This document shows, piece after piece, positions 1 through 61,565 of a stretch of DNA of 64,000 bases. The position numbers were made by a program, and so were the translations under genes. The DNA comes from Escherichia coli (GTDB taxonomy: Bacteria > Pseudomonadota > Gammaproteobacteria > Enterobacterales > Enterobacteriaceae), in the NCBI RefSeq assembly GCF_024502345.1, contig NZ_JALDNN010000001.1, one strand, 5' to 3'. Positions within the stretch are counted from its first letter, which is position 1, and the number at the start of each line of letters is the position of its first letter. A model generated the notes under the pieces. The model did no database searches, had not been told where the DNA came from, and saw only the letters and a list, made by a program, of their open reading frames with translations.

Positions 1-2
1 AA

Positions 3-1118
3 ACGTTTTTTGTCAAATTTATTGAACAACTGAAAGGTATTTCGGTTGAGGATGATGTTGAATTCAATTTTTTTGAATTGGGTGGTTCCGGATATCTCGA
101 AAATCCAACTACGGATTTGATGGCTTTGTTTATGGGAGCCCAGAAAATGGTGCCGCCATGGTTGCTCAAAGCATTGCTATGTTGCCTAGATGATTCCCTC
201 GATGTTGATGAAATTGATTTCACTTCTCTGGAGCTAATGAGAGAGGCCCGAACAGAAGATGGGAAATATATTGATATTCTTATCAGACATGATGAATTCA
301 TTATAGGTATTGAGCATAAAGTTCTGGCTGATACATATAATCCTTTTCCCAGCTATGTAAGTCTCATTGATAGTTACGGCGGCAACAATCAAAAACTATT
401 TCGCTGTATATTAAAGCCTGACGGTAACAGCGCTAAAGGCGTAGACGGTTGGCAACTGATCAATTATTCACTGCTGCTGGAAACCGCCATTCGACGTCTG
501 GGGTTAGAGATGATGAATCAAGAGTTCAGCAAGTGGACTTTTTTTTATCAGGAGTTTTTAAGTCATCTTAAAAAATTGAGTGAGGTTAGTATGGATAAGG
601 TATCTGATAAAAATGTGGAGTTTGTCACTGAAAATTTCACAGCTTTGATAAAATCGGTTCAATTGCTGGAAATGTACCAAAATGCTATCACCGAGGAAGC
701 TAAATCGGTTGTCTCAGAGGTATTGCCTGATATTCATATTGCAACAGGTATTAATAACTGGAAGGGTTACTATAAAGCAATTCATCTGATGCCGGGATGC
801 TGGGGGCAAGGTAAAACAGGAATTACGTTAGTTTATCGCCCTTCAGAGGATGGTCGAGATGAAGCTGAGTTCTATGTATATGGATGGATACATTCAGATG
901 ATTACCCTGAAGTTAATGCACTAAAAGAAGAAATAAGAGTTGCTTTAAGTGCTGGAGATTTCATTCCAACAGCTAGCCCTGAGGACTATGAAGTATCAAT
1001 TACTGGGAAGGGGAAAGTGCTTGAACTGAGTTTTTGGGGGAATACGAGAAGCAAAAAAGATGCACTGGTTCTTCTTAAGGATATGACTAAGTGGATGGAC
1101 TCAAAAATAAGAACATAA
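3..1118 (+). CDS. Hypothetical protein, 5'-truncated at window edge; PD-(D/E)XK-type nuclease motif (YIDILIRHDEFIIGIEHK)
   Basis: Frame is open from nt 3 with no in-frame stop before the track ORF at 78 (TTG), so the true start is upstream; stop TAA at 1116-1118; AT-rich codon usage. Confidence 0.7.
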   Translation, partial: TFFVKFIEQLKGISVEDDVEFNFFELGGSGYLENPTTDLMALFMGAQKMVPPWLLKALLCCLDDSLDVDEIDFTSLELMREARTEDGKYIDILIRHDEFIIGIEHKVLADTYNPFPSYVSLIDSYGGNNQKLFRCILKPDGNSAKGVDGWQLINYSLLLETAIRRLGLEMMNQEFSKWTFFYQEFLSHLKKLSEVSMDKVSDKNVEFVTENFTALIKSVQLLEMYQNAITEEAKSVVSEVLPDIHIATGINNWKGYYKAIHLMPGCWGQGKTGITLVYRPSEDGRDEAEFYVYGWIHSDDYPEVNALKEEIRVALSAGDFIPTASPEDYEVSITGKGKVLELSFWGNTRSKKDALVLLKDMTKWMDSKIRT

Positions 1119-1222
1119 AGTAATATGACTGAGTGATGACGATCTTTTTTAAATTGTGGATTATTAGGCTGGTAATTGAAGCGCCGAATAGACAGATATT
1201 AGAATAAAAGGAGAATATTCAA

Positions 1223-2404
1223 ATGATTTATCAGTGTGATACTTGCAGTAGAACGACTTTTGAGGTTAATTGTCCCTGGTGTAGTGGAGTTTCGCCTGTA
1301 AAAACGTCTGCATGGGGTTCAGCATCATCGACCTCACAAGCAATAGATATACAACGTATGACACCATTGAATCCATCGTTTTATCCAGAGTTTCAGTATC
1401 GTTCAAAGGGTGTTCTAAAAGATCTATTTGGGAAAAAGAAAGAGCAAACTCAGCTTAATCAATTGCTTGAAAATGTTCTCGAAAAATACTCCAGTTTAAA
1501 AGATCCATATTTTACTAACTTCATTTACACTTCCAGATTCTCACATAATAATAAATCGGAAGCAGATTACTCAACAGATAATGGTACATACTCCGAATTA
1601 CAACTTTTCCGTGAGGTGTTGGTCAGAAAAGGGTTCAATGAGCTTGAAGAGTTACCTGAGCTATTAGATAAATTACTCCTTACCACGTCATTTAACGCTC
1701 TTTATTATGGTTTCGCTAAGGAAGTTAAACGGCATATTAAATCTACACTTACTGAATCCTTGAAGTCATGGATTGAGGAAGCGGGTACCACTTTTAGGGC
1801 AGATCTTTCATTGTTTCTATTCTATATATGGAGCAATAAAATAGAGTTCTCATCAGTAGAGTTCAATGAAAAAGCGGAGGCTACGCCTGGTGTTCCTTTA
1901 GTTTCATTTGATGAAGTTAAAAAATACTTAGCTGTGTGCGAACATATTTATTTTGATATTCTGGTTGATAGATTAGCTACACGGCTCGAACATTTTAACC
2001 CTAACAAATTCGTCACCATGTATTTAGTTGATGCAATGGACGGTTTCCAGTTTGAAGATTTCCTTGTGGAAGTATTCCAGACTATGGGCTATGACGTCAA
2101 AGAAACCAAGAGAACGCAAGATCAGGGGGCAGATCTCTTCGTCACTCGATTTGGTAAGGATATGGTTATTCAGGCGAAAAATTATTCTGGTTCTGTAGGT
2201 AACTCGGCGGTGCAGCAGGTGATCTCTGCTAAAACATTCTATGGTTGTGATGAGGCGATGGTTGTGACTAATTCCTACTTCACTCGCTCTGCGAAAGAGT
2301 TAGCTGAATCAGCCTTGGTACGTCTGATCGACAGGGATGAACTGCAAAAGTATCTGGATGATTACAATCAGAAGATAATTGAAGATTTCCAGTCAAACTC
2401 GTAA
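1223..2404 (+). CDS. Zinc-ribbon protein with C-terminal Mrr-like (type IV restriction endonuclease-like) catalytic domain
   Basis: 393-aa ORF; SD aaggag upstream of ATG; N-terminal CDTC...CPWC; C-terminal GADLFVTRFGKDMVIQAKNYSG...LIDRDEL resembles the Mrr_cat core (D ... QxK). Confidence 0.75.
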   Translation: MIYQCDTCSRTTFEVNCPWCSGVSPVKTSAWGSASSTSQAIDIQRMTPLNPSFYPEFQYRSKGVLKDLFGKKKEQTQLNQLLENVLEKYSSLKDPYFTNFIYTSRFSHNNKSEADYSTDNGTYSELQLFREVLVRKGFNELEELPELLDKLLLTTSFNALYYGFAKEVKRHIKSTLTESLKSWIEEAGTTFRADLSLFLFYIWSNKIEFSSVEFNEKAEATPGVPLVSFDEVKKYLAVCEHIYFDILVDRLATRLEHFNPNKFVTMYLVDAMDGFQFEDFLVEVFQTMGYDVKETKRTQDQGADLFVTRFGKDMVIQAKNYSGSVGNSAVQQVISAKTFYGCDEAMVVTNSYFTRSAKELAESALVRLIDRDELQKYLDDYNQKIIEDFQSNS

Positions 2405-2589
2405 CTTTGCAGTCATATAGATATAGCAAAGGACAGGTAGGCCTCCGTGAGAGGGGGACTTACCTGTGCAGATTCTGTGCTCAAAGTTATCCAAGTCTAT
2501 CTATTTACTGCCAATTACAGTAAAATGAGTAAACAATTACAGCAAAGTTTCGCAATGCACTGCTATGTAACTCATTGATCCTGCGTAGA

Positions 2590-2645
2590 ATTTAAAATCC
2601 CTCGGCGTTCGCGCTGTGCGGGTTCAAGTCCCGCTCCGGGTACCA
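2590..2645 (+). repeat. attR-like partial tRNA-Leu (leuZ) copy: anticodon loop to 3' CCA only
   Basis: atttaaaatccctcggcgttcgcgctgtgcgggttcaagtcccgctccgggtacca matches the 3' half of E. coli leuZ; the preceding sequence does not match the 5' half. Confidence 0.8.
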
Positions 2646-2687
2646 TGGGAAAGATAAGAATAAAATCAAAGCAATAAGCAGTGTCGT

Positions 2688-2713
2688 GAAACCACCTTCG
2701 GGTGGTTTTTTTG
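2688..2713 (+). terminator. Rho-independent terminator downstream of the tRNA 3' end
   Basis: Stem accacc-ttcg-ggtggt followed by a T-run. Confidence 0.75.
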
Positions 2714-2840
2714 TGCCTGCAACTTGTCGTTACACCCTCCTTAATTTTTAATCACCGGCAAAGCCACTCAAAAAGTATCTCTGATACGGACCGGCATGTA
2801 AGATAGGTGCTGGCGAGTTGAGATCCACAAGGAAAAACGT

Positions 2841-3506
2841 ATGAAAACGGGACCGTTAAACGAAAGTGAGTTGGAATGGCTGGACGATATTCTGACCAAA
2901 TACAACACTGACCACGCCATCCTTGATGTGGCGGAGCTGGACGGTTTATTGACGGCGGTGTTGAGTTCTCCGCAAGAGATTGAACCGGAACAGTGGCTGG
3001 TTGCCGTGTGGGGTGGGGCTGACTATGTGCCGCGCTGGGCGTCAGAGAAAGAGATGACGCGCTTTATGAACCTGGCTTTTCAACATATGGCCGATACCGC
3101 AGAGCGTCTGAACGAATTCCCGGAGCAGTTTGAGCCGTTATTCGGCTTGCGAGAAGTTGATGGCAGCGAGCTGACGATTGTTGAGGAGTGGTGCTTTGGC
3201 TATATGCGGGGCGTGGCACTTTCTGACTGGTCAACATTGCCCGATTCGTTAAAACCAGCGCTGGAGGCGATTGCGCTGCACGGTACTGAGGAAAACTTCG
3301 AGCGGGTAGAAAAGATGTCGCCAGAAGCGTTTGAAGAGAGCGTAGATGCCATTCGACTGGCGGCGCTTGATCTACATGCGTACTGGATGGCGCATCCGCA
3401 GGAAAAAGCTGTTCAGCAACCGATCAAAGCAGAAGAGAAACCGGGGCGTAACGATCCTTGCCCGTGCGGTAGTGGTAAGAAATTTAAGCAGTGCTGCCTG
3501 CATTAA
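2841..3506 (+). CDS. yecA: SEC-C motif protein YecA (UPF0149)
   Basis: 221 aa; C-terminal [17 protein letters not shown] metal-binding motif; matches K-12 YecA. Confidence 0.93.
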
Positions 3507-34409: not shown

Positions 34410-35165
<756 letters not shown>

Positions 35166-35551
35166 TTTTTACCGTTGCATCATGTCGCCCAATATGATGC
35201 TTGCTCGTACCAGGCCCCTGCAATTTCAACAGGGGCCTTTTTTTATCCCTGAGCAGTATAAAAAACGAACGATTACCGTGATCTGTTGAGCGGGTGACAG
35301 TGAACATAGCGTTGTGCTAAAAATATTTTATATATTCACATTAATTATGGGATTTAAATTACTAAAACTAATAAATATATATTCTAAATAGCAACTGGTT
35401 ATTCCTTAGCAATTAATGATTACATTGTAATAAATCATATTCTTTATCGATTATTTCAGGCAGTGTTGTGCCGAATTATGCAAGCGGTTAATTCGTTGTA
35501 TATTTAATTATACAATGATTTCGGTGTTCTGGAATTTAATTAGAGGAATCT

Positions 35552-39157: not shown

Positions 39158-39262
39158 GCCTGATGCGCTATGCTTATCAGGCCTACATAGTCCCTGCAAT
39201 ATATTGAATTAGCAAGGTTTTGTAGGCCGGATAAGGCGTTCACGCCGCATCCGGCAGTAATA
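39158..39262. repeat. REP/BIME cluster
   Basis: gcctgatgcgctatgcttatcaggcctac and tgtaggccggataaggcgttcacgccgcatccggca units. Confidence 0.8.
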
Positions 39263-60923: not shown

Positions 60924-61565
60924 ATGAAAAACTGGAAAACAAGTGCAGAATCAATCCTGACCACCGGCCCGGTTGTACCGGTTATCGTGGTAAAAAAACT
61001 GGAACACGCGGTGCCGATGGCAAAAGCGTTGGTTGCTGGTGGGGTGCGCGTTCTGGAAGTGACTCTGCGTACCGAGTGTGCAGTTGACGCTATCCGTGCT
61101 ATCGCCAAAGAAGTGCCTGAAGCGATTGTGGGTGCCGGTACGGTGCTGAATCCACAGCAGCTGGCAGAAGTCACTGAAGCGGGTGCACAGTTCGCAATTA
61201 GCCCGGGTCTGACCGAGCCGCTGCTGAAAGCTGCTACCGAAGGGACTATTCCTCTGATTCCGGGGATCAGCACTGTTTCCGAACTGATGCTGGGTATGGA
61301 CTACGGTTTGAAAGAGTTCAAATTCTTCCCGGCTGAAGCTAACGGCGGCGTGAAAGCCCTGCAGGCGATCGCGGGTCCGTTCTCCCAGGTCCGTTTCTGC
61401 CCGACGGGTGGTATTTCTCCGGCTAACTACCGTGACTACCTGGCGCTGAAAAGCGTGCTGTGCATCGGTGGTTCCTGGCTGGTTCCGGCAGATGCGCTGG
61501 AAGCGGGCGATTACGACCGCATTACTAAGCTGGCGCGTGAAGCTGTAGAAGGCGCTAAGCTGTAA
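60924..61565 (+). CDS. eda: KDPG/KHG aldolase
   Basis: 213 aa. Confidence 0.97.

Follow-up and report, generated by a model that had tools for sequence, protein, structure and literature searches.

The window analysed here, a stretch of 64,000 nucleotides of Escherichia coli DNA, begins inside an open reading frame (gene 1) which carries a PD-(D/E)XK-like motif and is followed on the same strand by a second gene (gene 2). This raises the question of whether gene 1 is a fragment or a whole gene, whether its product belongs to the nucleases the motif points to, and what such a protein would do at this place, alone or together with its neighbour.

Limits of gene 1

From nt 3 the frame of gene 1 runs without interruption on the plus strand to a TAA at 1116-1118, and it comprises 371 codons and the stop. 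A preliminary description of the locus regarded the gene as cut by the window edge, which is true, though by 10 nt only. Positions 1-2840 of the window match the E. coli CT02 chromosome with 100% identity. In the record of this strain gene 1 is annotated as WP_042202021.1, a 'PD-(D/E)XK nuclease family protein' of 375 aa (1128 nt); the start codon is a TTG 10 nt ahead of the first position of the window, and an AAGGAGG ribosome-binding site precedes the TTG with a spacing of 5 nt. The part of the gene that belongs to the window (1-1118, +) contains residues 5-375 and the stop codon, and only residues 1-4 (four codons including the start, 10 nt) are found outside.

The N-terminus and further domains had been taken to be missing. 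This is wrong, because the CT02 record places just four codons beyond the window, and with 375 aa the protein is as long as its relatives: the homologues in our alignment have 330-422 aa, most of them 370-395, and the closest ones exactly 375 aa. The same description had associated an in-frame stop immediately upstream with a short ORF. Such a stop does exist in CT02, a TAA located 15 nt upstream of the TTG start, but the ORF is not short. Gene 1 is nearly complete in the window and no domain is lost.

Family assignment and catalytic residues

In the Pfam search that had been proposed for this gene, the protein matched PDDEXK_4 (PF14281) with an E-value of 4.1e-13 and a score of 50.1, and the match covers the model from end to end (positions 1-182 of 183). 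It spans residues 21-186 of the visible translation and, together with the fold order in the AlphaFold2 (AF2) model, delimits an N-terminal PD-(D/E)XK nuclease domain at 63-560 (+). In total seven PADLOC models for the candidate system PDC-S26 match gene 1, namely PDLC04981 as the best one (E 2.5e-50, profile positions 9-295 of 358) and six further models. A precomputed PF14281 assignment is present in 45 out of 45 homologues. Scans of gene 1 against NCBIfam and PHROGs gave no matching family. When solved structures were searched by sequence, with the protein as well as with the family profile, only chance-level matches were obtained (eL28, E about 0.6), and a literature search on PF14281 and PDDEXK_4 found no papers.

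The string in which the motif had been noticed, YIDILIRHDEFIIGIEHK, is encoded at nt 267-320, with the D codon at 273-275, the E codon at 312-314 and the K codon at 318-320. By itself, a hydrophobic-D...ExK pattern would be weak evidence for a nuclease. In its loose form it occurs in five of the 58 long ORFs of the window (mechanically called in six frames, at least 150 aa). The motif of gene 1 is above chance because of the full-length PDDEXK_4 match, the PDC-S26 match and the invariance of D95, E108 and K110. It is a real motif, and the string chosen for it holds the invariant catalytic D...ExK. Together with E37 these residues are invariant in 35 out of 35 relatives of an alignment covering 29-88% identity and in 44 out of 44 sequences down to 18% identity. 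N38, E85, N117, Y122, W154, K181, W182 and W257 are invariant in the 44 sequences as well.

Comparison of gene 1 with six orthologues gave dN/dS values of 0.04-0.27, the value for the 77% identical copy from Kluyvera being 0.07, and the gene is under purifying selection. That the protein belongs to the PD-(D/E)XK (PDDEXK_4) family can hardly be doubted. Judging from its sequence we also consider it likely that this predicted metal-dependent nuclease is truly active.

Predicted structure and the Walker A-like string

The AlphaFold2 model of the gene 1 protein (mean pLDDT 83.8) is divided into three parts. The N-terminal core has the order alpha-beta-beta-beta-alpha-beta, in which strand 2 bears D95 (273-275) and strand 3 bears E108-x-K110 (312-320), so that the invariance of the residues and the AF2 strands together mark the catalytic core at 273-320 (+). 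The first long predicted helix has at its N-terminal edge the invariant acidic residue E37 (codon at 99-101, +; motif GYLENPT). The core is succeeded by a long helical linker (residues ~181-244) and then by a C-terminal alpha+beta domain (residues ~245-375; 723-1115, +) which in the model is a separate unit and to which no Pfam family corresponds. The fold of this domain is like that of the sandwiches of type III secretion chaperones, YbjN, YktB and the MotA C-terminal domain, and also like PsiB. The protein is acidic in all three segments; this charge lends no support to a DNA-binding C-terminal domain, though it is not decisive.

Within the C-terminal domain the string GCWGQGKT (795-818, +) resembles a Walker A motif. 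The likeness had been suspected to be coincidental, and this is borne out. A GxxxxGK[ST] pattern is kept at this place in only two of the 35 relatives, where just P268, W271 and G272 are conserved, and in the AF2 model the string forms the loop of a beta-hairpin between two beta strands (E261-268 / E277-284) and not a strand-loop-helix. The scans of NCBIfam and Pfam gave no match of gene 1 to an NTPase family. The reading of gene 1 as a P-loop NTPase is ruled out by the poor conservation of the string and its location in the hairpin.

The pipolin context

In CT02 the genes are arranged in the order pgsA, tRNA-Gly, tRNA-Cys, tRNA-Leu, integrase, DUF2787, DNA polymerase and a second tyrosine recombinase, and further on hsdM, hsdS, a YecA-family gene, hsdR, an M48 peptidase gene, DUF262, gene 1 and gene 2. 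A 133-bp repeat at 2590-2722 (+) of the window (also at L002:3867-3997) is 95.5% identical to the 3' 56 nt of the tRNA-Leu gene leuZ plus the downstream terminator and represents attR, the right-end repeat of a pipolin. The chromosomal yecA (2841-3506, +) is the first core gene beyond the mobile element. The window starts within the pipolin and leaves it at about nt 2722, and gene 1 and gene 2 are the last cargo genes of this element, which has a size of ~27.5 kb and is inserted at leuZ.

The known site of E. coli pipolins is a tRNA-Leu gene between pgsA and yecA, and their core genes are tyrosine recombinases, WYL, DUF2787 and piPolB (PMC11551731). The element described here is like other E. 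coli pipolins in its DNA polymerase, two tyrosine recombinases, DUF2787, the leuZ site and the direct att repeats; the pipolin polymerase is the DNA polymerase gene annotated in RefSeq, which we read as piPolB. The pipolin is the host element of gene 1 and not a homologue of it. PDC-S26 is among the most frequent defence systems of the pipolins of Enterobacterales (PMC11551731).

At 96-99% identity the cargo module, with or without DUF262, is also found in Buttiauxella, Citrobacter, Klebsiella, Enterobacter and Intestinirhabdus. In SCEC020023 and no fewer than ten further E. coli strains a 4.5-kb pipolin remnant cut by IS1 (L027:5970-10613) consists of tRNA-Leu, IS1, a DUF262 pseudogene fragment, intact copies of gene 1 and gene 2, and attR, and possesses neither integrase nor polymerase. 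Kluyvera sichuanensis (L012:6782-19648) harbours a 77% identical homologue at the pgsA / tRNA / yecA hotspot, immediately behind the tRNA cluster, and in this 21-kb locus no homologue of the type I restriction-modification (R-M) genes, DUF262, Mrr, piPolB or the integrases was found.

The YecA-family gene between hsdS and hsdR of the pipolin type I R-M operon (L001:2263-2946) is a paralogue 57% identical to yecA. The rest of the window, as far as it was examined (to about nt 61200), has the usual core genes of E. coli with ara, ots, flhDC, mot/che, flhBAE, argS, torYZ and cmoAB, and further with aspS, ruvABC, znu, lpxM, pyk, zwf and edd. Rfam small RNAs in the window are MicL (34937-35244, +), C0465 (20868-20945, -) and ES036 (CssrF; 39179-39221, -).

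Gene 2 and the question of a partner

Gene 2 (1223-2404, +) encodes a protein of 393 aa, which according to its domain and PADLOC matches is an Mrr-type endonuclease and corresponds to PDC-S02. The protein comprises an N-terminal Cys-rich stretch (CxxC...CxxC), about 250 residues that match no family and, at the C-terminus, an Mrr_cat domain (E 1e-29). This last domain has further matches to the NACHT-associated 'inactive' REase and to ZorD-type Mrr domains. The gap of 104 nt between the two genes had been given correctly: the spacer extends from 1119 to 1222 (+) and the ATG of gene 2 is at 1223, preceded by an AAAGGAG ribosome-binding site at 1207-1213. A scan of this spacer found no terminator-like hairpin. 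It contains two weak promoter-like matches, which across positions 1-3000 are no commoner than in shuffled sequences, and the promoter and terminator scans of the spacers gave counts at or below the shuffled expectation. As far as can be judged from these scans, read-through transcription from gene 1 into gene 2 would be possible.

The two genes could therefore be thought of as one co-transcribed pair of a PD-(D/E)XK and an Mrr-type nuclease in which both proteins are needed, and several observations are in line with this: the common strand and the gap without a terminator-like hairpin, the adjacency of the genes in all copies of at least 96% identity from six genera, their co-occurrence in E. 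coli (the gene 1 sequence in 214 genomes, that of gene 2 in 243), and the intact state of both in the IS1-truncated remnant. However, the adjacency is restricted to copies which are at least 96% identical. At 12 divergent loci with gene 1 homologues of 24-77% identity, from Kluyvera, Pectobacterium, Rahnella, Yersinia, Kosakonia, Aeromonas, Polaromonas, Stutzerimonas, Vreelandella, Crenobacter and Burkholderia, tblastn found a gene 2 homologue within 10 kb in none, and an all-against-all comparison of the neighbouring ORFs revealed no neighbour family common to them. On plasmids, too, the neighbours of gene 1 homologues differ from one plasmid to another. Moreover, gene 1 and gene 2 match two separate single-gene PADLOC candidates (PDC-S26 vs PDC-S02), about 30 E. 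coli genomes contain the gene 2 sequence, full or partial, without gene 1, and gene 2 has its own ribosome-binding site.

Because the adjacency is found only in copies of at least 96% identity, a functional pairing is unsupported. A functional system of these two genes is unlikely, and an obligate, co-transcribed pair of nucleases strikes us as very doubtful. A conserved partner gene is ruled out by the all-against-all comparison over 14 loci, in which the only cluster present at several loci consisted of antisense 'shadow' ORFs inside the gene. On the basis of these sequence comparisons gene 1 qualifies as a single-gene system with gene 2 as an independent neighbour and with no obligate partner.

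Size and distribution of the family

With a cut-off of E <= 1e-3, a profile search of 1.84 billion representatives retrieved 1812 clusters, and with E <= 1e-10 it retrieved 984; almost all comprise proteins of 340-420 aa. AFDB50 contains 512 structural matches that share the two-domain build, and the only label they carry is 'PD-(D/E)XK nuclease superfamily protein'. The 90% identity cluster of WP_042202021.1 has 1172 member sequences. Within E. coli the gene 1 sequence is present in 214 of 5426 complete genomes (about 4%), in every case on the chromosome, and enterotoxigenic strain ETEC H10407 is one of the carriers. An intact ORF is kept in no fewer than 211 E. coli genomes, and also in six other genera.

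Conjugative plasmids from Klebsiella, Cupriavidus and Vibrio encode distant relatives of gene 1. The hsd operon of the Vibrio plasmid is followed by a gene for an SprT/M48-like metalloprotease, just as hsdR of the E. coli pipolin has an M48 peptidase gene after it. In Polaromonas and Vreelandella (L019:8022-11191 and L022:9965-12713) the homologue stands alone, inserted 10-13 nt behind a housekeeping gene of the same strand. A MetX-family gene adjoins it at both loci, which may be a coincidence. The homologue of Crenobacter oryzisoli (L023:10094-11151) is split into two ORFs and is probably a frameshifted pseudogene or the result of a sequencing error. A tblastn search with gene 1 against 50,697 phage records gave no match, and an assignment as a phage gene is thereby ruled out.

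A possible role in defence and its alternatives

The explanation we prefer for these data is that gene 1 encodes a complete, stand-alone, pipolin-borne PDDEXK_4 nuclease acting in defence, and we give this full reading a probability of about 0.55. The protein would be built from two domains joined by the helical linker. The N-terminal one would be a metal-dependent PD-(D/E)XK phosphodiesterase with E37, D95, E108 and K110 as its active site, and the C-terminal one would supply the recognition of a target or a trigger. As a single-gene defence nuclease (a PDC-S26 candidate) the protein would cleave invading DNA. The data show the limits of the gene, its family, the conserved catalytic residues, the purifying selection, the pipolin around it and the lack of a conserved partner; nuclease activity, the role in defence and any role of the C-terminal domain are our inference.

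The support for such a role is by association. Gene 1, the second-to-last cargo gene, belongs to the variable, defence-rich half of the element, where a type I R-M operon and a GmrSD-like DUF262 gene precede it and the Mrr-type endonuclease gene comes next. On the Vibrio alginolyticus plasmid NZ_CP014052.1 (L026:769-9397) a type I R-M operon accommodates, between hsdS and hsdR, a distant PDDEXK_4 relative and two GTPase genes. A homologue from Burkholderia is found among NERD and SMODS genes, one from Rahnella adjoins an HNH endonuclease, and the persistence of intact gene 1 and gene 2 in the IS1-truncated remnant also supports defence. Against it speak distant homologues which stand alone between housekeeping genes (metX-metW/chrA, ubiH/MetX-like esterase, mtfA/rluA). 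Among the immediate neighbours scanned at these sites there was no convincing PADLOC defence match, the sole match being MetW against the methyltransferase model mad2. The PADLOC assignment itself has to be read with care. The PDC systems as a whole are 145 putative, 'guilt-by-embedding' candidates, derived from genes embedded in type I R-M operons (bioRxiv 10.1101/2024.01.29.577857). In addition, the chromosomal yecA matches PDC-S12 with an E-value of 1e-110, so PADLOC candidate models can flag non-defence genes, and the PDC-S12 model would flag the core gene yecA in every E. coli.

Instead of opposing phages, gene 1 might serve the mobile element, be it in recombination, excision, replication, the processing of pipolin DNA or the competition between elements. 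PD-(D/E)XK folds include recombination nucleases. Gene 1 is close to attR, with only gene 2 in between, and homologues are carried by conjugative plasmids or have integrases as neighbours. Alone among the frequent 'defence systems', PDC-S26 is not enriched in genes recently exchanged with other elements (PMC11551731), and it therefore behaves more like a stable component. However, divergent homologues have neither piPolB nor an integrase nearby, and some of them lie between housekeeping genes. Gene 1 is also intact in the remnant from which integrase and polymerase are gone, and it belongs to the variable cargo module, outside the core genes named for pipolins (PMC11551731). We therefore hold a service to the element to be improbable. 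Similarly doubtful to us is a toxin-like or abortive-infection effector, in which the chaperone-like C-terminal domain would hold the nuclease until infection releases it and the cell is killed. This proposal can draw on the likeness of the C-terminal fold to protein-binding folds (type III secretion chaperones, YbjN, PsiB), on the overall acidity of the protein and on the relative inside a type I R-M operon, which occupies the slot of backup effectors such as PrrC.

That gene 1 is a catalytically dead or otherwise non-functional relic, annotated through a domain match alone, is very improbable. The family is known from sequence and predicted structure alone, and the Crenobacter homologue is in two ORFs, but the catalytic residues are invariant in the sampled members of about 1800 cluster-level relatives, dN/dS is far below 1, and intact ORFs are kept both across E. 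coli (at least 211 genomes) and in six further genera. Among the defence readings a more far-reaching one is that PDC-S26 represents an undescribed kind of single-protein immune nuclease, whose C-terminal sensor unleashes the PD-(D/E)XK domain. Here the chaperone-like domain would sense a phage protein, or an anti-restriction protein which disables the neighbouring type I R-M system. We regard this as unlikely; if it were true, the array of R-M, DUF262, PDDEXK_4 and Mrr genes would be a layered backup system of the pipolin.

Comparison with known systems and implications

Gene 1 as such is already known, as it is represented by RefSeq protein WP_042202021.1, a Pfam family and PADLOC PDC-S26; the element that hosts it and the site of insertion have been published as well. 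With the other PDDEXK_4 / PDC-S26 proteins it shares full-length HMM matches, the two-domain build of ~350-400 aa and the residues E37/D95/E108/K110. There is no structural difference between them, and the difference lies in the position, as gene 1 follows a type I R-M operon whereas its relative on the Vibrio plasmid is embedded in one. Stand-alone restriction-endonuclease-like defence nucleases, such as Mrr-like type IV enzymes and Upx-like single-gene systems, have the PD-(D/E)XK core in common with gene 1, which is likewise without a methyltransferase or ATPase partner and has R-M and type IV-like genes as its neighbours. Embedded backup defences of the PrrC type occupy the hsdS-hsdR slot in which a distant member of the gene 1 family is likewise found. 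However, PrrC is an anticodon nuclease of the ABC-ATPase type, whereas the gene 1 protein, because its Walker A string is spurious, has no ATPase, and it is encoded outside the hsd operon here.

With 375 aa, clear catalytic residues and the status of a single-gene defence candidate, gene 1 is a handy test case, for which natural backgrounds with the full pipolin and with the two-gene remnant both exist. If gene 1 does act in phage defence, one of the 145 'guilt-by-embedding' candidates would be validated, and the family, with its roughly 1800 sequence clusters, would gain a function.
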